Shown: positions 21,849 to 62,590 of the stretch, piece after piece
Numbering within the stretch: position 1 is the first letter of the stretch
Layout: the number at the start of each line of letters is the position of its first letter
Assembly: GCA_000934665.2 (NCBI GenBank)
Contig: KZ537969.1
Coordinates: 186,001-250,000, forward strand
Reading direction: 5' to 3'
DNA: 64,000 bases
Origin: Catajapyx aquilonaris
Taxonomy: Eukaryota
Notes under the pieces: generated by a model
Database searches by the model: none
The model's input: only the letters and a program-made list of their open reading frames with translations
Told to the model about the DNA's origin: nothing
Made by a program: the position numbers and the translations under genes

Positions 21849-24800
21849 TCAAGAAGGTTTGAACCGGCTCTTGTTGTTGAGGGGCAAGGCCGACCTCGAC
21901 ACTACCATTTTGAGCTTTCTGTCAGTTGGGATGGTTGTAGGGTCGGAAGTGGGGGTTGTGGGTGTCCCTGGTTTGTCCTTGGCAGAACTAGCAGCAGTTG
22001 GTCTCATGAAGCTGAATCCAGGGCCGTTGTTGGTTTTTCCCCTGGAAGAGGCAGCGTCAGATTTGCTGCTGCTACTGTGCCCACTAGAAGAGAGTTCAAT
22101 GGGTGTTATTTTGGGAGGGGCCGGTCCTTTCAGGGAGCTGCTCCTGGAGGTGGACACTGATGACCTGGAGGCTGAGTTTTGCCTGGAGAGATTTTCCTTG
22201 GAGCTGGCACTGGGGTGACGGGAGCGCCTTTGCGACAGCGACGAGGCTGATGAAGGGGTTCGCCTGAGGTTGCTTGTTGTGGAGGAACCACTGTGCTTGC
22301 GTACCAAGGAAGACTTGGGCTGAAGTTGACCCAGCGGTTTCTTGGTAGTTGAAGATGGAATTGAAGTGGCTCGTGGCAAGCGAGATGTTGCCAGCTGCAA
22401 GCCTGGATCGTTCTTTGCGGTCTTGCACAGGTTTTTGGTCAACACCTTTATGGCCGAGGTGTACGCAGCCATTTTACCTTTTCCGTCACTGGACGGCGTT
22501 AGTGAACGTGAGGTCACAGCCCCTGGAGCCATTCGAACAGTGGTCGCTGCGGATGTACCACTGGTCAAAGAACTACGTGAGCTACGGAGACTGGTCTTTG
22601 ATGTCGAACGTTCCATGCTACGACCACTTGTACTACTGGCTGCACTGACAGGTTTTCCATTCGGTACATTTCTCCAGTTCTTGCGAATAGGAATTTCAGA
22701 TCTGGGAGCATCTGCCACCACAGAATTAGGAGGGTTCAGAGTCAATTCTGTATCGCAAACTCCCTGACTTGGTGTTTCTGACTGAGAACTTTGACTTTCC
22801 TCAAACCCTTCGTCCTTGTCATGCTCATTGCGAATTCTAATTACAGTTGGAGTCACCGTTTGGATGCGAATTCTGGGGATGCTGTCTACTTTTCTGGATG
22901 GCACCGTGGCCTGTGGCTCACCCTTCGCTGGTGCTCGGCCAACTGTGCTTGAATCCACAGTGTCTACTGCCTTACCATCTACTTTGCGTGGATCTGCTCT
23001 GGCTGTTGCAATCTCCCTTTTGAAGGCTTCATGCACTTGCTTGGGGTCAATCAGACTTCTTGACCTGTCTCGCTTTTCCCTGGTGCTTCGGAACAGTGGT
23101 ATGCTTGAAGTTGTTGGCGTCAGAGCTCTATCAGGGGTTCGCCTCCAGGTGGGTGATGCTTCGGCATCAGGACTTGATGTCCCTCCTGGTTTCAACTTGC
23201 GAGTCAACCTAGCTGTCCAACTGCCTTTCTCCTCTGCCTCGTCACTTGGCCTCCGACCCACAAGTCTCTCCTGCCACTTCTTGAGACGGGCCTCTTTGTC
23301 TTCTTTCACAGGGCTTACAGTGCACGACTGGGATTTTTGTAAAGCTGGCACACGACTCACTTCCACCTGCGCTTCCATTGGCTGGCGTGCTTCAAGGAAC
23401 TTGCTGCTGTCAGGAGGTGTAGAACCTGTGTCATGGCGCTTGTACCTGCGGGTACGGCGAGTTGAATGAAAACGGTCAAACTTTCCATCACCCATTTCTT
23501 CATCAGCAGTGCGGTCTTGAGACGAAGACAGGTTGTCAACACCATCTCTCTGAAATGCAAGACGTATAGGTATGATATTGGTCAGTGGGAAGAATTCAAC
23601 CAATTTACCTGTTTTCCTTTGGCATCCTTTTGCCCATCATCTGCTGCTGACCGCACTCCTTTTCCTTTGCTTCCGACTGCATCTGAAGTCAGACTCCGGA
23701 AGCGTCTGTTGTGACGCCTAGCATCAAAATCTGTGTCTGTTTCAGCTGCTTCTGAGACTTTGGCAGCAGTCTTGCTTGAGGATGCTGGTGACCTGAAGCT
23801 CCGGAAGGCAAATGCTTTTCGTGTCACTGGAGGTGTCTCAACGTTTTCAGAATCTATGTCTATTTTGTCACTTGAGCCTTTTATGCTCTGGATTGTGTCT
23901 GCCAGGTCACTGGTGTCCAAATTGCTGAGGATTTTCTCTTGGAGTTTGGTTCGCAATGCGTTAGGGGTCAGTGGCACAGGCCCATTCTGCCGGCCACTAG
24001 ACTTTGTAGCGTCATTCTTTCTTGAAGGCACTGGAGATGATGACAGACTGTCAATAGTTTTTATGACATCTGGTGGAACCTCAACTGAGTCACGGAATTT
24101 CTTCATCAGCCTAGAACGGGTAGACTCGTTTGGACTTGTACGTTCCGCCTCTTCAGGTGGATCACTTGGCTTCTGCTCATCGTCCTCCTCGTTAGGATGT
24201 CTAATGTACAGCGTCAAGCTTTCCTTCATCCTCTGCTTCCCAAGCGAACCAATCATCTCTTTACGCTTGTCTTCTTCCTTGATAACCTGAAACCAACATC
24301 ATTTGCCGCTTGTTCAATGCATTCATGGAGATGTTAAGAGATAATTACTCAAATTCTTTCTAACCTGTAATCCGGAGGAAGCTGCTACAGGATCCAGGTT
24401 TCCCCTAGACCGCATTCTCCTCAATCTTCTAGCTTCAATTTCTGTTTCCTCTGAGCTATTGGGCACATTGAGAGTTGACTTCCTCCAAATGGACTTGTCC
24501 TTGACTGGACTTTGAGCACCTTCAATGGCCTCCATGGCACCCACAACATCAGTTTTGTCGATTGTGGGTTTCCAGTCTGGATATACCCTTTGATATTCAG
24601 ATGCTGCTTTCCCTTCAGGAAGTGTATCCAAGGGGCTGCCAACTGTACCTCTGTTGTCTGTCTCTGCAAATAATTACCAGTGATAAGTAATCAGGAAAAA
24701 TACTCGTTATATTAATGTGTTGTAGTATATGCAGTGGCGGATATTTGCACTGACCTGGTTCTGCTTCAGCTACTCGCCGCTGTGGTTGAAGTCGACGACG

Positions 24801-27800
24801 CCTGTTGCTAAGGTCCTCTGCTCTCTGTTCCTCTTGCTCCGTGGCTGCTAACCAGGCCTCAATCTTTTGCCGCCATGGAGATGGTCTGCAAAATATTTTT
24901 GTGTTAACAAAATTATTATGCACTATTTACAAAATGCAGCAAAATTAATATTACATTCAATTTTATTAAATGAGCATGACTTTATTAATGGTTCAAGATT
25001 CCTTTGGAGCTCAAACTATTCATTTATGATTTTTTAAAAGAGAAAAACCCTAGTGCCATAGACTACTCTGCAGTATATTACATGGTATTAACCAGTTGGG
25101 GCCAGTTTGCTTGTAGGTAACTTTGCATTGGAGTAGAAATTGTCATACGTTGTATAAATTATATTTTGCAGCTGCATCTGCATAAAACCCTTGAAGTGTG
25201 AATAATTTATTGTAGCTATCAAATGGATTTCAACGGTTGTCAATCTTACAGTAGGGCATGTAGCAGTTCACATAGAATTTTACGTCACTCTGTTTACTCC
25301 ACCTTATTTTCCCTAACATTGTTTTGGATAGTTGTCATAGTGGCCATCGATATATGCAGTCTAATGTGTTAAACGTAAGGACTGCATGATGTGTGACACA
25401 TATTTGCAGTCTTATACTGTCTAATTATTTGCAAATATAATTATGCGCAATTTAGAACTGACTTTGACTTAGAATCCGGGACTTCAGAAGGCACAGGTAC
25501 TGCTGGTGCTCCTTCCTGTGTAGGTGTCGAAGCAGCTGAAGGAACCGATGGAGCACCTCCGAGGCCAGGTGAGCTTGGTCTCTCCCTCTCCACGCCAAAG
25601 TCTGCACTCAGTAGATCAGGCCTCCTTCTGCCACCACTTCCACGTGCTCGACGTGCCCAAGAACGATCCAGAGAACCATAGCTGTCTGCAGGAAAAAATC
25701 ATACACATGTAAAATTAATTACTACAGTAAATTTAATGTGTTATTAGCTCTTGCTATGAACTATGGACAGACACAACACATACATGCAGCCGAAGCAGGA
25801 CGAGGGACATCAGCAGCAGTGGCTGAAACTCCAGCACACCCACCCAGTCCTCCCCACGACTTCCTCTCTCTGGAGCCATCGTGTCCAGAGGCTCTCAAGA
25901 AGTCCATCAAGTTCGAATCGTCTTCTTCCGAAGGGACGCGGCTGCGACGACGCCTCAGGCTACCATTAGGGGTCACATCTGGAATGAATTTGCATTGAAA
26001 TTACTGCTGCAATTGATAGATTTTAGAGTTGTCACCTGGTGAGTTTGTGTCCTCACGATTTGGCTCTCCTGGTGGTCCAGAAAATGATCCCAAACGGCGA
26101 CGGACTATTCGAGGAGAGTTGGTAAGTGATCCCAATTCTTCCTCAGACGTTGGGATCCCATTGGCCACACCAAGATCTCGTTTAATCTTGCGATTCTGCA
26201 GTAAGTCACTTTTGATAATTACTGAACCCTTGTGTATATATTCGTGTACAAACCTTATCCTTATCGCTGTTTTTCCTCTGAAGCAATCCAGCACGAATGT
26301 CACCCAGAAGAGAGTCCACCAAATTGCAATCAGATTCAGATCCACTTGGTCCCTGGGAGCTGTTGGCTGAAAAACCAAAAAGTCGGTGTTATTTTCATGT
26401 GGCCAATGCATCAAGATAATTATTAGTAGCCTACCTTGGCTTTGTCGACGTCTGGCTGCTAACTGCTCTTCTCGCTGTCGACGTCTCTGCTCAGCTTGTT
26501 CCTCCTGCAGTTTTCGTCTCTGGTTCTCAGTTACCGCTTGTTTAAACCTGACACAGAATGTGTGGAACACTTTGAAGCACTCCTCCAGTTTGAAAGAAGT
26601 CGGATCCTCGCAAAAGAAGTTGGACAGTTCCACACGCACCAGCTCCAGTTCCTCCAGATCAGTCCTCAGAGCCTTCATCTCCTGCATGGACATCTGAAGA
26701 GTATGGACAAAAATGCATCAGAAATAATGCAATGCCAATCGGTCCAAATGTGAATAAATCACATATCTTGCAAAACCATATATGGGTGTAACGGCAAAAA
26801 CCACTTTCAATATGATGTGGGCGGGTGATTCATTTCAAAGGTACGAAAAATTTAATAATCGAAGCCAAAATTAGTCTGAAGGTCAATTAAGGGCATTTAG
26901 GAGTCACCTTCAAGACTTACCTGAAGAAAACCGGACATCTGCTCTCTAATGTCAGCCTGAGTTGACTGCAACTCGATTTGCTGTCCGATCTTTGTTGTTC
27001 GGACATCCAGTGCCGCAATCTCATTCCGGATTTGTTCTGTTGTAGTCCTGTAATAGCGCCCCCATTTTAATTACATGCAACTGGAACATTATGCTACCGA
27101 TGACTCACTTTGTGGCTTCCTCCAAGGCCGACATATCCTCGGTGAACTTGAGCAAGACCCGGTTCTTTTTCTCGGCTTGCTATTAAAGGAAAGCAAGAAA
27201 ATCGAGGTTAATTGCAGATAGATTGATTGCTGCCACTTTTGCTCAAGGACTTTTGCAAATGTTTTTTTTCGCATCCTTTATTACCAGGGCAACGTAATGT
27301 AGGAGATTCATTCCAGGCTTGTTGGCACGGATGTCTGTCAGTTTCTGCAACGAGCTCAGCTTCACTCCGGCAGCATTTCCAGCGTAACCGCCCTGTTTTG
27401 AGTTAATTAGAAATTTGTAAAGCTCATTCGGTAATTAAGATTGTCACTCAAGATACTTACGGAGTTTAGGAAGTTACCGGCCACTAGCACCATGTAGAGG
27501 ACTTCATGCAAATCTTTATTGTTTTTTAAGTCTGCAAAATAATTGTTGAATAATTAGACTAAATTTTTAACAATTATTTGAGTAAATGTACCTTCTGCAG
27601 CCATGATCATAGCACTTATAGAAGGCTCCAGATAGCCCATGTTTGAAGCAAATTCTTCCTTCAGCAACATAGCTTCGATCCTCAATCGGTAGCTGCGTAC
27701 AAAAAAAAAAAACACATTGTTACTAACTGTCAAAAAATTATTAAGGAAACAAACTACTGGCAATCTACCCACTTCGGAACGTGGATCAAAAGAAGCAGAA

Positions 27801-52596: not shown

Positions 52597-53893
52597 CTGT
52601 TTGTCCAGGGCGAGTCATCAGCGCAATTTATGTGAGGGCAATTAATGGCAATGTGAGTAAACACTACGCTGTTGTACACAAACCAAAATCCTTGAAGGAG
52701 GGCTTGGAGAGGGCTTAGAAAACTTCCCACCTCATCTTTATTCATAACTTGGAGCCAACTTCACCTTCGGTTCTCTTTTTAATTCGAGACAACGAACGCG
52801 TCTAAACCCACTCTCTTCCCTTTAGGCCCCGCATAGTGGGGGGATTATTCTCGTGACACTTTTATCGTCGCCATCGTTTGAGTTAGAGAGACCCTCCGCC
52901 AAAGACAACCTGTTCGATCGCCGCCATCTTCAAAAAACACCCTTTTTATTTGTCCATTGCCTAGGTGTCCCCTCTTGTTTTTTTTGTGTTCCCAAAAAAA
53001 GGGCGACTCTATTCTGCAGGTGTCGGAGGGAAATGAATTGTCCAGCGTTAATGATGAACCCATGTTAGAAGTGGAGGCGGAATGGGGGATAAATTCAGGT
53101 GGAAAAGAAGTGCCCACCCATGCCGCACTATGAGATGAAAACAGTTTTCGAAACACTAGAGATTTTCTGCAAGGTCGACCGGAATTGCGAAAAGGATAGG
53201 TTAGCAAGGAATTTTTTTCGCGGGTGCGTGACGAAATATTTTAGGCACGCGGAATTATACTCTTAGTCACCGCACGCCTGTTTCGGCGGAGAAGAGTCGG
53301 TGCGTGGGACGGACATATCGAGAGATACGATCTGTATTGTGGATATTTATGATCGTTGGAACTGCGCAGGAATAAATACGACGAGCTGGCAACGCAATTC
53401 CTGGAGGACATAAATGCAATTAATTCTTAGTGGTCAGCTAATGATAATAGTGCTGGTTGGGCTACCCGTGTTCTAAATATATGAATTGCGATTGAATTAT
53501 TGGAACAACAGTTTAAACCGCTTTTGCAACTTTGTATGATTATTTTTAAATAATGCCGCCTAATATTAACAGCTAATTCTTTGTATAAACCGCCAACATA
53601 ACAGCTATTAATATGGCAACTCACTGCGTATGAGTATGACGAACATGGTAGCCATTCAGATTGTTACTTACGGACATGTTTATTCAGGTTAATGTTGAAC
53701 CGCGCTTAATATCATTATTTAGTAAGTTAAACACGGCCAAACCGGCTTGAAAATCAGCTGTAGCTAATATAACCAGCTGCTTCTGCCGACAGAAGAAGCT
53801 GCTTGGCTTCATTCGGCCCTCCGTCTTTCAAAAATGGCGGCGCTCACGTGCCAGTGAAGAGCATGTCTTTTTTAATGCGAAATCCTCCGAATT

Positions 53894-54484
53894 ATGACAA
53901 GTTATTACGACGAGGTGGAGATAGAGGACTTTGAGTACGACGAGGAAGAGTCCACATACTACTACCCGTGTCCCTGCGGCGACAGGTTTCAAATCACCAA
54001 GGTTTGTGGCTTGTTGGGCACTAGGCCTGGTGCAATGATTGCAAATATTATGGCTGATATATATTTTTCTTTCTTCAAATCTATAGGCTGAGCTGGAGTC
54101 TGGAGAGGAAGTGGCGGCGTGCCCCAGCTGCTCACTAATTATCAAAGTCATTTATGATCCTGTAAGTACACTACTGGGAAGAAGCAAACAGCGGGTGTGC
54201 AATGATGATGTAAATTGCGCCAGACAGCATTTGAGTGGACCACTGCCTGCGTCCAAATGTAGCTCACTTGACTGGTTGACGACAAGATTACACTGAGCAT
54301 ACTTTACCGAAGAGAAGCTTGTTGGCTCATAGACTTGTGAAACATACGGTTATGCTAGTTTCTTGAAGAGTTGCGATTGACTTGTTGGTGATTTGCCTGC
54401 ATTCCTTTCCAGGAGGATTTCCTACCCAGTGAGGAAGAAGTAATCCCGGCTCCTGCTAAGAAACAGCTTGAGAAAGCGTCCTAA
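53894..54484 (+). CDS. DPH3: Diphthamide biosynthesis protein 3 (DPH3/Kti11, CSL zinc finger), 84 aa; exons 53894-54001, 54087-54161, 54413-54484
   Basis: [63 protein letters not shown]...KAS*. CPCG and CPSCSL motifs. Canonical phase-0 introns. Confidence 0.95.
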
Positions 54485-54500
54485 CTGGAGTGCTTGAAAG

Positions 54501-55184
54501 ATGGCCGGACGGGGAGGACGTGGGGGTGGCCGCGGCCGTGGTCGTGGCGGGATGTCCTTCAACTTGGACCAGCTGGGCCTCTCCAAAGGCGAAGCTTTGC
54601 CAGGTCCTGTTCTTGCACCGCCACCATTGTACCCACCATTACTGAACAAGCCGTTAGTGTTTAAAGCAACTAGTGAGACAGACTACCTCCTGATGGTGCG
54701 CAAGGAATTTCTGGATTACATGCAAGAGTCCACATTCTATGTGAAGCCTAATCCAGTCAAGGGCGAGATAGAGCGCTACTCTGATCGCTACCAGACTGAA
54801 ATTTCTAGTCCATCGGCTCTGGATGTTGATTGGTCAAGGTTTCCAGAGGGTCTGAGGCCAAATAGGGGCAAGAAGAGGAGTCGAGTGAGCAGCGGGAAAC
54901 AAAGCACCAGGAAGAAGAAAAAAGTGGAGGTCAACATGAACCGACTGGAGGATCTAGAACAGCAAGAAGGAAAAGAGATTGACGAGGACAAAGATCAGGA
55001 GGAAGAAAAGGAGGAGGGTGAAAAGGAAGGCGAAGGGGAAGAAAAAGACGAAGAAGAGGAAGAGGAGGAAGATCCCGACAAAGAAATGGATGAAGAGACG
55101 GACTACATGAACTCTCACTTTGACAATGGAGAGGACTACCTGGAAGAAGATGAGGACAATGTAGATGAAGGAGCCATCTATTGA
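54501..55184 (+). CDS. POLR3G: RNA polymerase III subunit RPC7/RPC32 (POLR3G/POLR3GL-like), 227 aa, intronless
   Basis: MAGRGGRGG..MSFNLDQLGLSKGEALPGPVLAPPPLYPPL, IERYSDRYQ, DWSRFPEGL, and an acidic tail ending ETDYMNSHFDNGEDY...DEGAIY, all hallmarks of Rpc31/RPC7. Confidence 0.95.
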   Translation: MAGRGGRGGGRGRGRGGMSFNLDQLGLSKGEALPGPVLAPPPLYPPLLNKPLVFKATSETDYLLMVRKEFLDYMQESTFYVKPNPVKGEIERYSDRYQTEISSPSALDVDWSRFPEGLRPNRGKKRSRVSSGKQSTRKKKKVEVNMNRLEDLEQQEGKEIDEDKDQEEEKEEGEKEGEGEEKDEEEEEEEDPDKEMDEETDYMNSHFDNGEDYLEEDEDNVDEGAIY

Positions 55185-56007
55185 TCTTTTGTCTGTAATT
55201 CGAGATGTGTGATGTCTGCAGCATTGGAACACATTTGTGAAGTATCGGCACATATTGATGCATGTAACATAATCATGAACTTACTACACTGCGGTAATTG
55301 TGACATAAACAGTGTACAAGAAATATATATATATTTCTTACACTTCAGAATTTAGCTCGTATCCATGTTGCTACGAATTTTTTCAGATGCTCATTTCCAT
55401 TCGTTTCTATCATCTCGTTTGTAAGTACATTTACACTAGGATTTAGCCAGTCACAGAGAGTGGTGTGTAGGTATCTTATGAATTGCAAAATCACTGAATT
55501 AACTACAGGTAGTTATGTAGCTTTAGTACTGCAGATTACCAAATATGAACTTAGATGAAGGTGACTGACAAATGTTATCCACTTAACATGGATTGCGCCA
55601 AGTAATTTTTATTTCACATGATTATCACACTACACTTGAACTGTGTGTACATATCTTGATGAAACTGATATGATTGGAGTTTGTCACGTTGACAGGATTA
55701 CTAGAAAGCCAGTAGTCGGAAGACATTTAAATGTTGAACATAGTAATAAGTACAGCATTAACACCGGATCTCTAGCTTGTTGATAACAAAACGCAGTAAG
55801 TCCTAATAACGTGTATATCTTACACCTAAGATCAAGTTTTTCTCCTCCAACCTGGCATCAACATTTCATACTGAAATATCATGCTTTAAACTTCCAAGTT
55901 TCAATTACCATCATTCCCTGTTTCGCAATGGGCTGTGTAGGTATACATTTTTAGACCTAATGAGCTAATAAAAACTGCGCTTCAGGTTCACTTGACTGAC
56001 AAGCAAA

Positions 56008-57979
56008 ATGAAGACCTCAGCGTACTTCATCTTGGGCTTGATGTCACTTGCATGTGTCCTTCAGTCTGCGGCATCAGCACGCATCTTGGTCCTGTACATG
56101 TTTTCTGGGAAGAGTCACAAGATCTTTGCGACAACCATCGCTCAAGCATTGGCAGAGAAGGGACATGAAATTGTGTTTGTGTCCCCTTACCGAGAGAAGA
56201 AAGAGGTTCCTGGCATAAAGCAAGTGATAGTGGACGGAGGCATACACAAATTGAGAGAAAAACTGCCCAATATGTTTGAGCTTCGCAGTCAATCTCTTTT
56301 ACGCATGATCCCTTTCCCATCAATATTGGACACAGTTCGGTCCATCAGTGCACCAGTCTTCGAAAACCCAGAGATCAAGGCTTTGACAGCCAAACCAAAC
56401 CAATTTGATTTGATCCTGTGCAATGGATTTTTTAATGAAATAGCCTATGGGCTGATACATAAAATTAATGCCCCAGTCATTTTCTTACAACCGAATGTTC
56501 CGACCATCTGGCAGTCAGAGTCTTTCGGCAGTCTTGAACCTCTCTCATATGTCCCCAACATATTTTTGAAGCTAACCAGCAAGATGAACTTCTTTGAACG
56601 GATTCTCAATGTAGGATACACTGGCCTATCGAAGGCGATTAGGGAATTATATTACCTCCCCCGTATTCACGCCGAGATCAGCAAATACTACCAAGATATT
56701 CCAAGCCTTTTGGAGGTGGAGAGGAATGCAAGTCTTATGCTCACAAATGGCCATTATATTCTCAACTCTGCACGTCCTCATATTCCAGCTATTGTCGACG
56801 TAGCAGGAATTCACTGCAAGCCTTCTAAACCTTTGCCAAAGGTAAAGTGGATGTAGCTTAAACATGAAATTAATTAAGCATTGTCATGTGTCATTCCGAT
56901 CATACTAATTAACGCTTCTCTTACAGTCAGAGCAGAAATATTCTTACGTGAACTTCAATAGTGCAAATAACAAATAGACTTGGATAAGCAAAATACAATT
57001 TAATTAGGCCTACTTGCGAATATAATTTGTGAATTAATAGACACCTAGTAAGAGGCTAATACGTACAGTAATTTATTCCTTTATTATTGCGTGCAGGACT
57101 TGGCCGATTTTGTGGACAGTTCGGGAGATCATGGTTTCATCTTATTCAGTTTGGGGTCCTCAGTTCAAGGGAGCACCATGCCCGATAAACTCCGCAAGGC
57201 TTTCCTTGAAGTCTTTTCAAAGCTGCCTCAAAAAGTGATTTGGAAATGGGAAACTGAGCAAATGGAAGACTTGCCACCTAATGTGAAATTGAGCAAATGG
57301 GTTCCGCAACAAGATGTGTTGGGTGAGCAACATCTCATTTTGAAATCATGGTGGGTTCACTCATTACATAAAATATTGTACTGTACTTTCTCAGGTCATC
57401 CGAAATGTCGGGCGTTCATATCCCACGGAGGCCTTCTTAGCACCCAGGAGGCTACCTACCACAGGGTGCCGGTGATTGGGATTCCATTCTATGGTGATCA
57501 GGATGCTAATTTGATGAACATTGAAAATTTTGGGTATGGAATTAAGCTGGAACTAGGCGAGCTGTCGAAGGAGACCATTGCAGGTGCCCTCGACAAAATA
57601 CTGAGTGACAAAAGGTGTGCTAAAATGAATCTCCCTACTTTTTGCAATGAATGGTTGCTCATTTTGGTTTAAAAAATAATACAGATACAGAGAGAGAGTG
57701 ACGGAGGCATCGAAAGTATTTCGTGATCAACAGACAACACCTAAAGAGAGGGCGGTGTTCTGGATTGAGTATGTGATGCGCCACAAGGGAGCTCAACATC
57801 TGCGGCCTGGTTCAATGGACTTGAACTGGTTCCAAAATAACCTGTTGGATGTGTCTTTACTTTTTGCTGCTGCCGTAGCCACAGTACTTTACTTGTCCTT
57901 TACATGCGTGTGTTTCATATGCACAAAATTGTGTGGTGCAAAGCGTGGACCTAATCAGAAAAAACACAAGGTCCACTAA
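56008..57979 (+). CDS. UDP-glucuronosyl/glycosyltransferase (animal UGT, GT1), about 524 aa; exons 56008-56841, 57097-57322, 57395-57614, 57685-57979
   Basis: Signal peptide, ARILV..SGKSH catalytic His region, UGT signature [44 protein letters not shown], C-terminal TM helix and KKHKVH ER-retention tail (1575 nt). Confidence 0.95.
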
Positions 57980-58444: not shown

Positions 58445-59997
58445 TCAAAGTTTCGGGGTCCCTTCAGTCCAGATGACTTTTACATCGGTACAACGACGTA
58501 TGACGTCCTGGATGGCATATTCCGTGATGTCGAGACAGTTATGCAAATTTAATTGGGTCAGATTAGGACAGTTGTCAGAAATGGCCATTAGAGATCTATC
58601 ATCCAGGTTCTCACACTCAACCAGCTCAAGACTCTCTAGATTACCAACCACTTCCCGCATGGAGAAGAAGGCAGGCAATATATCTGCCTCCATTCCAAAC
58701 ACATAGCTCAGGCTAAGGTTGCGCAGATGGCGAAGGCTGCCAAGTGACTCAAGAAAATCCCTCTCGGAAATGCCGATTAAATCCGATACAGACAAGTCCT
58801 GCAACACTTCAAATTTATGCAGGTGTTCATGCAAAGGATGGAGTATGCCATCAACATTGTAATTGTCTATTTCCCCAATACTCAGTTTTACCACTTGGCC
58901 TCCAACGCTATCGGCAATGACTCGAAATTCGTGGTTCAAGCAACCTGTATCCGATAGCCTGTGGTACAGGTTCACCTCTGTGAGTTTAGGCCATTCTCGA
59001 ATTATGTTAAAATGAGGAGGAAGGCTGCTGCCACGGGTCCTCTCAATGGTCAGCTTCTCCAGCTGGGGGCTCAAGGCAAATACATCCAGAAAGTTCGTAG
59101 AACCATCTGGCACCATCACAGCTTTTAGCTTGAGATCCTTGAGCAACTTGCACCTGTTGGGATGTAATCAATCAGCGTCTATTATGGCAACCGAGTATCC
59201 AACACTTACATTTGTGCCACCTCAAACAACCCAGCCATTGAATTGAAAGTGACAGCCTTCAATTCAAGCACCTCGAGCTCAGGTAGAGCGTAAGCAATGG
59301 TGGTCACCACATCGTCAGCCCCTTTGTCTCTCCAGTGCACCATGCTAACAGTCTTCAGCCGGGTCATCCATCCCAGCAGCTCTATCGCCTTCTCCGCAGT
59401 CATGCACCAACCCCGCAGTTGAACTTCCTTCCAGAGGTTAACATCGCGTGATAGCTCATACCATTCCTTGCATACCAGAGCAGCCCTCATTGTCAACTCA
59501 CACTTTGGCAAGAATGAGAACACCAACAACTTCAGATGACGATGCAAGTTGCTGAAAGACTTGGGCGTCGGCACCTGCAGAGGAAGAGGAATGATATTAT
59601 GTTAGTGGCAATATAATTGCAGCTTCGGCCAACAAAGTACCTCTTGTTGCCCATTTTGGACAGCTATTCCCTGGTGGCTTATCCTCTTCTGCCCCTGACG
59701 ACACCCTGCTGCGGTGTCACAACTCCCTGAACCCATGCCGGATGCCCACATAAACTGGAAGGTAGTACCTGGCTTCCATTCCCCTAAAGCATACTCGTTT
59801 GCAGCAGAGTTCAAGGAGGCCATGAGCTCATTGCGCATTTTCCACTTCAGCCTCATCGCCTGCACCTTCCTTCCTCCACGTTTCCTCCTCTTCTTTCTCC
59901 TTCCTTGATTACCGGGCCCTGCGGCGTCCCTCACCTCCTCTTCAGGTGCCTCTTCAGGCATGTTGTCGACAACCACTGCAGAATCAGAGGACATCAT
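58445..59997 (-). CDS. F-box/LRR-repeat protein (FBXL-type), about 476 aa; exons 59997-59641, 59574-59210, 59153-58445
   Basis: F-box LHRHLKLLVFSFLPKCELTMRAALVCKEWYELSRDVNLW, cysteine-containing LRRs (LESLELVECENLDDRSL, CPNLTQLNLHNCLDITEYAI) and N-terminal basic RRKKRRKRGGRK. Phase-consistent (1431 nt). Confidence 0.85.
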
Positions 59998-60635: not shown

Positions 60636-62590
60636 ATGCAGCGGTTCATCAGCACGCTATGCACCTTGGCCAGAGGTAATTTCAGGCTCGGAGTTAAATT
60701 TTTTGGCAAATAGTAAAAAGAAAGAAATCAACATAACCAAGATGTGACAACATAAATTTTCATATGACTGAAGGGCATATTTTAAATTTCGAAAAAGAGG
60801 AGAAAAATAACAAAAGATGTGACAATGTTAAGTACGAGTAGTAAAAAAAATATTGATAGGAAAAATCACTAAAAATAATCACAATAATTTTCATTGGCTG
60901 AAGCCCACGTTTTTAAATAGAAAAAATATATATATCGGTGGTAAAGATTTATCAAAATAACAAGAGTGATTGTTGATAGTTGCAGGGATAAGACCTTCTC
61001 GGCAGTGCTCCGATTTGACACACCATTTTGAAGAGGGGAATACAGGATCCCAGAAGAGCGAGGGATGCTTCGTTAGCCATGTCGTTTCATGTGTGAAGAA
61101 GTTTGATTATGGAGCGTGTCTGACTGGCAGGGTGCTTGCTGCGAGCAGTGGCAATGAGAATGAGGGGGATGGGAAGGGGGAAGACAAGTTCAGGAAGAAG
61201 ACTGAGGAATTTAGATTGCCACCACCATGCTTCTCCTTTTTAGATGCACTTGGATGTGTGAGTACTTGATATTTTCATAATAATACGTAATTAATTATTG
61301 CAGTTTCATTTGTATTTAGCACTGATTTTTGTAGAAAATTAACATTAACTTAAATCCGTATTTTCCAGAGTGCAAGCATAGTACTTGGATACCACCTTGT
61401 TCAACCGTTGCGAACACGTCGCAACAACAACGAAAACGATGCAGTTAGCAATAAGAGCTCAAAGACTAGTCATGAACTGTCCCGCATTTTATGGCGCCTT
61501 CTTGTAAGCCAGTCTTCAGGAGCACGCCTTCAAATATTGCCAAATGTAGCAGCGCATACCACGAAAGCTGCGAGCGAAGAGAGTTGTGAAGAAAGCTTAG
61601 GTTCAAGTTGGGACAGTGACTGCGAGAGCCAGAGTGAGAGCGACTTTAGCTGTGATGACGAAGCGAATGAGGAGCTGGAAAATGCCGTGGCGAGGCTGAC
61701 TGAATCGCACAGTGACTTGATTTGCGCTGCACACCTTAAAGACGGGGTAGCTCTAATGGCTAGGAAGGAAACGCAATCACATGGATTTAACTCTCTGCTA
61801 AGAGCATCCGAGTTGGACAGTCCCACAGCGCATTTTAATGTCGGCTTGTGCTATCAGCTTGGCAAGGGCACCACGGCCAACGCAGCCAAGGCGGTGCAAT
61901 ACTATGAGAAGGCGGCTGCCAAGGGCCACAGCACCGCTATGTACAACCTTGCCGTAATGCTGCTGCAGGGAAGGGGAGGGCTTCCGGTGGACACCACTCG
62001 GGGAATGGGGCTCTTGAGGCAGGCATCAATCATGGGACAAAAGGACGCCATGCAAGCAGTCGCTGCCTACCAGGAAGGTGCGTGAAATTTTATGATCTGT
62101 GTGTTAACCGGTTGCCATGGTGATAGTTGCCATGGAGACCCACTGCCATGGCAACCAAACCGGAACAAACAAACAAACTTTGCCTTTTTATAATGATAGA
62201 GATTTGTAGATTCGTTCCTACAGTCATTGTCATGGGTCCAATATTATTATGGCAAATTTTTTAAATGAAGTTGCTTCATTGGAGTGCTTTGGCATAATAA
62301 TAACTCTTAAAAAAAATTGTGATTTGTTTTCAGAGCCACCGGTGATGTCTGGTAAAGCGTCTGCCAGTCGTCCTTGGGATGATGACAGGCACAGAGAGCA
62401 CATTTTGATGCGTGCCCTTGGCTACCTGGCTTTGGCAGACGTGAAATCGGGGAACAACAGCTGCCTCCGCCAGAGCTCCTCGACTCCATCTTTGGGAGAA
62501 GGCCTCGTGACCCTAGAAGCTCCTCTTATGACCTCGTTTTCAGAGCTAAGTCTTCAGGACGGTGCTTCCGGAGTTAGGATGACTTCCTAA
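60636..62590 (+). CDS. DELE1: DELE1-like mitochondrial SEL1/TPR-repeat protein, about 425 aa; exons 60636-60675, 60986-61257, 61369-62077, 62334-62590
   Basis: Presequence-like MQRFISTLCTLARGIRPSR, hydrophobic LDALGCSASIVLGYHL segment, and SEL1 repeats (AHFNVGLCYQLGKGT..AVQYYEKAAAKGHSTAMYNLAVMLLQGRGGL..GMGLLRQASIMGQKDA). Phase-consistent (1278 nt). Confidence 0.72.
62108..62202 (-). mobile_element. Truncated non-autonomous Helitron-like 5' end carrying three X-box-like subrepeats
   Basis: Minus strand reads A|TCTCTATCATTATAAAAAGGCAAAGTTTGTTTGTTTG, resembling insect Helitron 5' termini. No CTAG 3' end was found. Confidence 0.45.

Follow-up and report, generated by a model that had tools for sequence, protein, structure and literature searches.

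A probable dicistronic DPH3-POLR3G messenger RNA in an arthropod genome

A stretch of 64,000 nucleotides (nt) of Catajapyx aquilonaris (positions 186,001 to 250,000 of contig KZ537969.1, assembly GCA_000934665.2), here called the window, carries the genes DPH3 and POLR3G (RPC7/Rpc31) on the same strand, separated by a short spacer. The two genes are probably expressed as one conserved dicistronic messenger RNA (mRNA) of an arthropod nuclear gene, on which POLR3G would be reached by leaky scanning, a reading that we hold with fair but not full confidence. A single promoter upstream of position 53868 (all coordinates are those of the window) would give rise to a pre-mRNA, from which both DPH3 introns would be spliced out. 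The mature mRNA would then consist of a DPH3 open reading frame (ORF) of 84 codons, the 16-nt spacer and a POLR3G ORF of 227 codons, with a poly(A) site after 55249, and both proteins would be made from it. Some 40S subunits would bypass the moderately good AUG of DPH3, meet one AUG in a weak context and initiate at the AUG of POLR3G, whose context is strong.

An operon-like mRNA of this kind had been proposed in an earlier note on the window. The proposal was followed up in the assembled contig of a public sequencing run (X1), by profile searches and alignments, and in other species. X1 is the only public run found to match the stretch, for which no RNA run is listed; its library type is not on record, and what it provides is an assembled contig. 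The parts of the locus are as follows.

53868 to 53893, plus strand: 5' leader as far as the 5' limit of the X1 contig, which starts here; an upstream ATG lies at 53875.
53894 to 54001, plus strand: DPH3 coding exon 1, with the ATG at 53894 in the context gaattATGa; match to positions 1-31 of the 55 in profile PF05207, E 4.6e-13.
54002 to 54086, plus strand: DPH3 intron 1, 85 nt, GT..AG, skipped in the X1 contig and in the splice model.
54087 to 54161, plus strand: DPH3 coding exon 2, which ends on a codon boundary; match to positions 33-55 of the 55 in profile PF05207, E 5e-9.
54162 to 54412, plus strand: DPH3 intron 2, 251 nt, GT..AG, skipped in the X1 contig.
54413 to 54484, plus strand: DPH3 coding exon 3, with the TAA stop at 54482-54484, from the splice model and the X1 contig.
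54485 to 54500, plus strand: intercistronic spacer, 16 nt, without an ATG; it contains a TGA at 54495-54497 and an AG at 54499-54500 that abuts the POLR3G ATG.
54501 to 55184, plus strand: POLR3G (RPC7/Rpc31) ORF, complete and intronless, 227 amino acids (aa); its ATG lies in the context gaaagATGg.
55185 to 55327, plus strand: 3' untranslated region (UTR), reached by the X1 contig up to 55249; poly(A)-like hexamers begin with CATAAA at 55304, followed by AATATA at 55322.

Direct reading bore out the layout on which the earlier note had been built, that is the TAA of DPH3 at 54482-54484, the start of POLR3G at 54501 and a spacer of 16 nt. The 84-aa DPH3 is the sole three-exon model of such length when all GT/AG combinations are searched, and its introns are of the GT..AG type. 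When compared with the Pfam CSL zinc finger profile (PF05207, cut-off 29.2 bits), exon 1 reached 49.1 bits and exon 2 reached 36.2 bits, and the domain is whole when both exons are combined. Members of the DPH3/KTI11 family are approximately 80-90 aa long and are recognized by four cysteines that bind zinc or iron (CxC ... CxxC), and both a CPC and a CPSC are present in the spliced translation of 84 aa.

The POLR3G ORF matched the Pfam Rpc31 profile (PF11705) with 96.4 bits (cut-off 30.2) over profile positions 11-212 of 212 (E 3.3e-27). In an alignment of 23 sequences (A1) it is collinear from end to end with 22 orthologues, and among the columns that are invariant, the window included, are the first Met and the TDY..FDNG block at the C-terminus. 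Since conservation extends from the first Met to the C-terminal end, the ORF is complete within one exon, and since DPH3 and POLR3G both exceed the curated Pfam cut-offs, a chance pair of ORFs is ruled out. The best relatives of the POLR3G protein are from insects (Timema, Gryllus, Bacillus rossius and Anabrus), with identities of at most 48% among the best 120 of 511 matches at E ≤0.001. In a quick maximum-likelihood tree of 53 rows the window sequence forms a long branch among the arthropods, within no well-supported clade, and the non-arthropods form a separate clade.

POLR3G is intronless here, whereas the coding sequences of human POLR3G and POLR3GL have seven exons each, according to the available text of PMC3875860, and at least three coding blocks are present in an arthropod-like POLR3G locus from metagenome contigs (L002, see below). 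The simplest origin is therefore a processed copy of POLR3G, which may have inserted into the 3' UTR of DPH3 and assumed function there. The missing introns could also mark a dead or redundant retrocopy that lies passively in the 3' UTR of DPH3, with a working POLR3G elsewhere in the genome. This we regard as extremely unlikely, because all 227 codons are intact, the Pfam match is full-length and both ends are conserved. The frame is still open although the protein is just 48% identical to its nearest relative among the matches listed, and the linked arrangement is repeated in distant taxa.

In the interval 53300-56100, X1 yielded one contig only, which is 1046 nt long and nowhere differs from the window. 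Its three blocks (53868-53999, 54085-54161 and 54413-55249) skip both DPH3 introns, and the joints, 54001/54087 (a possible placement) and 54161/54413, independently confirm the splicing of DPH3. The contig runs unbroken from 26 nt 5' of the DPH3 ATG through the spacer to 65 nt beyond the POLR3G stop, and neither loose ends nor other joints are reported on it. Within the interval, X1 gives no cover of the introns, of the upstream flank or of the sequence past 55249, a gap that carries no weight here. The lack of introns is the mark of RNA, or of DNA copied from it, and a processed transcript with both complete coding regions is present at the level of the assembly. As the contig crosses the spacer and all of POLR3G, the RNA extends beyond 54501. 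A DPH3 mRNA ending before 54501, one of the two outcomes that the earlier note had named as fatal to its proposal, is contradicted by the continuation of the contig through POLR3G.

On the spliced RNA the frames of DPH3 and POLR3G are offset by one base, and the TGA at 54495-54497 is the nearest in-frame stop 5' of the POLR3G ATG, so the separation of the two frames that had been described from the genomic letters holds for the RNA as well. The observation that the first poly(A)-like signal follows POLR3G was also confirmed. The spacer contains no poly(A) signal, and twelve poly(A) hexamers (AATAAA, ATTAAA and ten common variants) have no occurrence within 54413-55184. Only weak variants are found in this interval, AAGAAA at five sites, of which four fall in the Lys/Glu-rich part of the POLR3G coding region, and TTTAAA at one (54660); barring their use, the DPH3 mRNA must include the POLR3G ORF. 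The CATAAA at 55304 lies after POLR3G, and a further hexamer, AATAAA, is located downstream at 55967.

The gene order recurs in other species. Metagenome contigs were scanned with the POLR3G alignment, which gave at least 594 pattern matches and at least four confirmed loci (L001-L004). L004, a contig of 1029 nt, harbors at 25-300 an uninterrupted ORF for DPH3 of 91 aa (Pfam E 3e-24); a spacer of 27 nt separates it from an ORF of 183 aa for Rpc31 (328-879; Pfam E 4.6e-10). The POLR3G sequence of L004 is very divergent; in the Protein Atlas, this second ORF matches Rpc31 clusters exclusively, none of which gives a useful taxon, and a relative with 86% identity (P0122) is found on another contig. 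The 3' extremity of L004 is an AATAAA, and together with the layout of the ORFs this makes L004 resemble a near full-length mRNA. Its DPH3 shares 64% identity with that of the window over 81 aa; DPH3 is too conserved to place L004 by BLAST.

Further instances came from annotated proteins. A search with the POLR3G of L004 led to the protein P0124, which served as the next query. Among the 120 matches listed for P0124, PF05207 and PF11705 occur together in three proteins, namely P0124 itself, P0129 and P0126. In P0124, an unnamed predicted protein of the scale insect Kerria lacca, DPH3 residues 1-62 abut the Met of POLR3G. In P0129 (Tribolium castaneum TC033736) DPH3 occupies residues 212-282 and POLR3G, beginning at about its residue 54, follows approximately ten residues on at 292-445; the N-terminal part of this protein is transposon-like and includes a CCHC-type knuckle. 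P0126 is the same Tribolium-like sequence, and both entries appear to be a dicistronic locus that was wrongly annotated. As all three show the bridging that is typical of gene predictors at abutting out-of-frame ORFs, they place DPH3 and POLR3G as same-strand neighbours in a beetle and in a scale insect. No fusion like P0124 that covers both halves was found among the best 150 of 1941 matches in the representative library, and a POLR3G part was present in none of the 11 extended DPH3 proteins examined; from these sequences, true DPH3-POLR3G fusion proteins seem rare. Four rows of the library search with two matching stretches were rejected as candidates, being too short for a fusion (104-146 aa). 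A DPH3 model of 173 aa from Glossina fuscipes (P0127) contains two tandem DPH3-like segments, perhaps through duplication of an exon set or an error in the model.

A fusion protein could also be produced in the window itself, by alternative splicing from the donor at 54161 to the AG at 54499-54500, which would bring DPH3 residues 1-61 in frame with POLR3G. The phase is compatible, since exon 2 closes on a codon boundary, and P0124 has exactly such a junction. This product is nevertheless highly improbable: in the X1 contig 54161/54413 is the only joint seen from that donor, the pyrimidine tract at the candidate acceptor is weak, and the 150 best representatives offer no second example. P0124, moreover, is an unnamed prediction whose junction is the usual artefact of predictors.

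The same AG bears on a spliced-leader operon, in which the transcript would be cut into two mRNAs and a trans-spliced leader joined at 54499-54500 before POLR3G. The AG directly adjoins the POLR3G ATG, very short intercistronic distances are typical of spliced-leader operons of the tunicate type, and the window is placed only as arthropod, a group in which some crustaceans trans-splice. We nevertheless judge such an operon very unlikely here. The 20 nt that precede the AG are 50% pyrimidine, compared with 80% at both real acceptors, and the X1 contig passes the site with no loose end. Any AG is missing from the spacer of L004, and the usual poly(A) hexamer is unavailable to a separate upstream DPH3 mRNA. 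The arrangement also occurs in a beetle and a scale insect, and spliced-leader trans-splicing is not known from insects.

At the ATG of DPH3, positions -3 and +4 are both A; at that of POLR3G, -3 is A and +4 is G, which is the strongest context. A further ATG is found just once, at 54154, in the 271 nt of spliced RNA that separate the two starts; its -3 base is T, and its ORF of 12 codons terminates at 54443, before POLR3G. The leader ATG at 53875 is also in a weak context, and its frame of 19 codons overlaps the start of DPH3. The number of out-of-frame ATGs was compared with a null of 20,000 synonymous recodings. In the DPH3 ORF of L004 none is present where 4.8 are expected (P ~0.001), whereas the POLR3G ORFs are not depleted (13 observed and 11.9 expected; 11 observed and 9.9 expected). 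As judged from the sequence, both the counts and the contexts of the ATGs are consistent with leaky scanning, one of the two routes suggested in the earlier note, by which POLR3G would be translated from the long RNA. Reinitiation 16 nt past the termination codon of DPH3, the other route, is a second possibility and is less attractive after 84 codons. RNA folding at the stop/start junction was no better than that of shuffled sequences (z -0.05 for window positions 54413-54600 and +1.05 for L004 positions 230-420), so a structured restart or entry element is unsupported. A search of the entire window against Rfam at gathering scores gave no matches.

Several observations weigh against a dicistronic mRNA that is read by leaky scanning. 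The library of X1 is of unrecorded type, a de Bruijn contig can merge two overlapping transcripts, and an assembled contig across two genes does not prove single molecules that span both ORFs. In the window the depletion of out-of-frame ATGs in DPH3 (1 observed, 3.2 expected, P ~0.12) is not significant alone, and L004 has an out-of-frame ATG at 320, only 8 nt 5' of the presumed POLR3G start, which opens an overlapping ORF of 17 codons. With a purine at -3, the DPH3 AUG may be only modestly leaky. DPH3 is missing upstream of POLR3G in three of the four metagenome loci: L001, whose POLR3G is closest to that of the gastropod Aplysia (67%), has a leader of 154 nt without DPH3; L002, the arthropod-like genomic DNA with at least three POLR3G coding blocks, has no DPH3 in 2.17 kb upstream; and the distant relative L003 has none either. 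Judged by the sequences compared here, the linkage of DPH3 and POLR3G is widespread, not universal.

The main rival is a pair of overlapping transcription units. The long RNA would then make DPH3 only, with POLR3G as an untranslated 3' stretch, and the POLR3G protein would derive from a shorter mRNA with an internal promoter of its own in DPH3 intron 2 or exon 3. Contigs reveal neither start sites nor single molecules. An upstream ORF of 84 codons is long for efficient reinitiation, which taxes the dicistronic reading and favours a separate mRNA for POLR3G. In the FlyBase survey of Drosophila melanogaster, as far as the available text of PMC4528330 goes, many polycistronic loci also yield monocistronic transcripts via internal promoters, and 3' cistrons often have such transcripts from downstream promoters. 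Two units are nonetheless unlikely, if well short of negligible. The X1 contig is unbranched across the junction of exon 2 and exon 3 and across the spacer. Intron 2 lacks a TATA-like hexamer, and its five ATGs would weigh as upstream ATGs on any leader that begins there. Tight spacing is found again in L004, whose contig likewise starts upstream of DPH3, and the depletion of out-of-frame ATGs in DPH3, most marked in L004, would be purposeless without scanning ribosomes. The dicistronic mRNA remains the reading that we prefer.

If confirmed, the locus would represent a deeply conserved dicistronic mRNA of animals, both products of which feed translation capacity: POLR3G (RPC7) acts in the synthesis of tRNA, and DPH3 in tRNA wobble modification and in the formation of diphthamide on eEF2. 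A shared mRNA would impose obligatory co-transcription and a fixed ratio of translation on two components of translation supply. It would explain why gene models of Tribolium castaneum and Kerria lacca are wrongly fused, and would offer a natural test case for the translation of a second ORF behind a long first ORF of 84 codons in animals. The arrangement could further serve as a marker, the gain and loss of which can be mapped across arthropods.

A coupling of tRNA synthesis to tRNA modification by this pairing is speculative. According to the available text of PMC4528330 the partners of FlyBase dicistronic pairs are mostly functionally unrelated, so the coupling idea requires separate support. 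A possible parallel is the pair CG33785/CG33786 of Drosophila: CG33786 is Tcs2, a factor of tRNA t6A synthesis (PMC5372737, in the text available), and the 108-aa CG33785 upstream of it bears the InterPro label 'Transcription', the pair being conserved to Bombyx (PMC2276209, likewise). It differs from DPH3-POLR3G in that the 'Transcription' ORF comes first and the two ORFs overlap by 1 nt (File S1 of the FlyBase survey). CG33785/CG33786 consists of different genes and was rejected as an instance of the DPH3-POLR3G pair. CG33785 may be Polr3K, a subunit of RNA polymerase III (Pol III). If this is correct, a Pol III subunit would share an mRNA with a tRNA-modification gene twice, which would hint at a recurrent rule. 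The strongest version holds that DPH3-POLR3G is an ancient arthropod 'translation-supply' unit, maintained by selection, which locks a Pol III initiation subunit, limiting for the synthesis of tRNA, to the electron donor for wobble-uridine modification (Elongator) and eEF2 diphthamide, and that it belongs to a recurrent pairing of Pol III with tRNA modification. We consider this decidedly unlikely.

Other features of the window lie outside the unit. Just upstream of the 5' end of the X1 contig, positions 53829-53850 contain a AAAATGGCGGC motif and a CACGTG E-box (53845-53850), which may be due to chance. The AAAATGGCGGC motif resembles a YY1/Pho site and the CACGTG a Myc/Max-type site. Downstream, the next gene, for a UDP-glycosyltransferase, comprises two or more coding blocks on the plus strand (56008-56856 and 57052-57672; Pfam UDPGT, E 5.8e-15 and 1.2e-36); its N-terminus is signal-peptide-like, and it starts 41 nt past the AATAAA at 55967. 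On the minus strand, 21849-23636 is an open frame of 595 codons with long neighbours at 23582-24298 and 26001-26717. In Pfam searches these three frames had no match at E 0.001, or a sub-threshold one only, and the frame at 21849-23636 could represent either a repeat element or a gene specific to the lineage. Open frames with leucine-rich repeats and with Sel1 repeats are located at 58445-59167 (minus strand) and 61354-62085 (plus strand), respectively.

The earlier note had known of no published description of the DPH3-POLR3G pair, and none was found by full-text literature searches, which among supplements covered File S1 of the FlyBase survey but not those beyond it. That file contains no Dph3 or Polr3 symbol; its entries are mostly CG numbers, which were not mapped to these two genes, and candidate CG numbers for the two are absent from it. 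The class of dicistronic mRNAs is well known in insects, and it is this pair that is apparently undescribed. CG9288/CG42375 was considered on account of its dimensions (a locus of 1172 nt, an upstream ORF of 80 aa and a gap of 19 nt) and was rejected, as it combines a CX9C peptide with a main ORF labelled 'pyruvate kinase'.

Known systems resemble the locus to different degrees. Like the spliced-leader operons of nematodes and tunicates, it has co-transcribed genes on the same strand a few bases apart; unlike in these, its candidate acceptor is poor, the contig shows no loose end, the spacer of L004 is free of AG, and the mature RNA appears dicistronic. Bicistronic loci of green algae (PMC11291117, PMC7896298, in the text available) share exclusively polycistronic transcripts and a proposed leaky scanning past the first ORF; they belong to a different kingdom, and any more detailed likeness is conjectural. 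In the conserved-peptide upstream ORFs of Diptera, as presented in PMC2276209, a conserved ORF some tens of codons long lies ahead of a longer main ORF, as DPH3 does here, and some of the pairs are conserved to Pancrustacea or Arthropoda. The terms diphthamide, Kti11 and polymerase III do not occur in the main text of PMC2276209. In contrast to the peptides of that set, DPH3 is a universal stand-alone protein of eukaryotes and not lineage-specific.

The best comparison is provided by the dicistronic genes of D. melanogaster in FlyBase, of which the available text of PMC4528330 counts 159 pairs, or 2.5% of the protein-coding genes. As in Snapin/CG9960, Mocs2/CG42503 and stnA/stnB (PMC4528330), two separately conserved and mostly unrelated ORFs are present on one processed mRNA. 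In FlyBase, 82% of the partners are dissimilar, few of these being known as functionally related, and resumption of scanning is cited as one route of translation (PMC4528330, same text). Stop-to-start distances range from -34 to 319 nt at the loci with polycistronic transcripts only, a range that includes the 16 nt found here, and small proteins such as the DPH3 partner are over-represented (PMC4528330, same text). The locus described here is from another arthropod, and its evidence is at the level of a contig; with this difference, it fits the FlyBase dicistronic class in every feature that can be tested.

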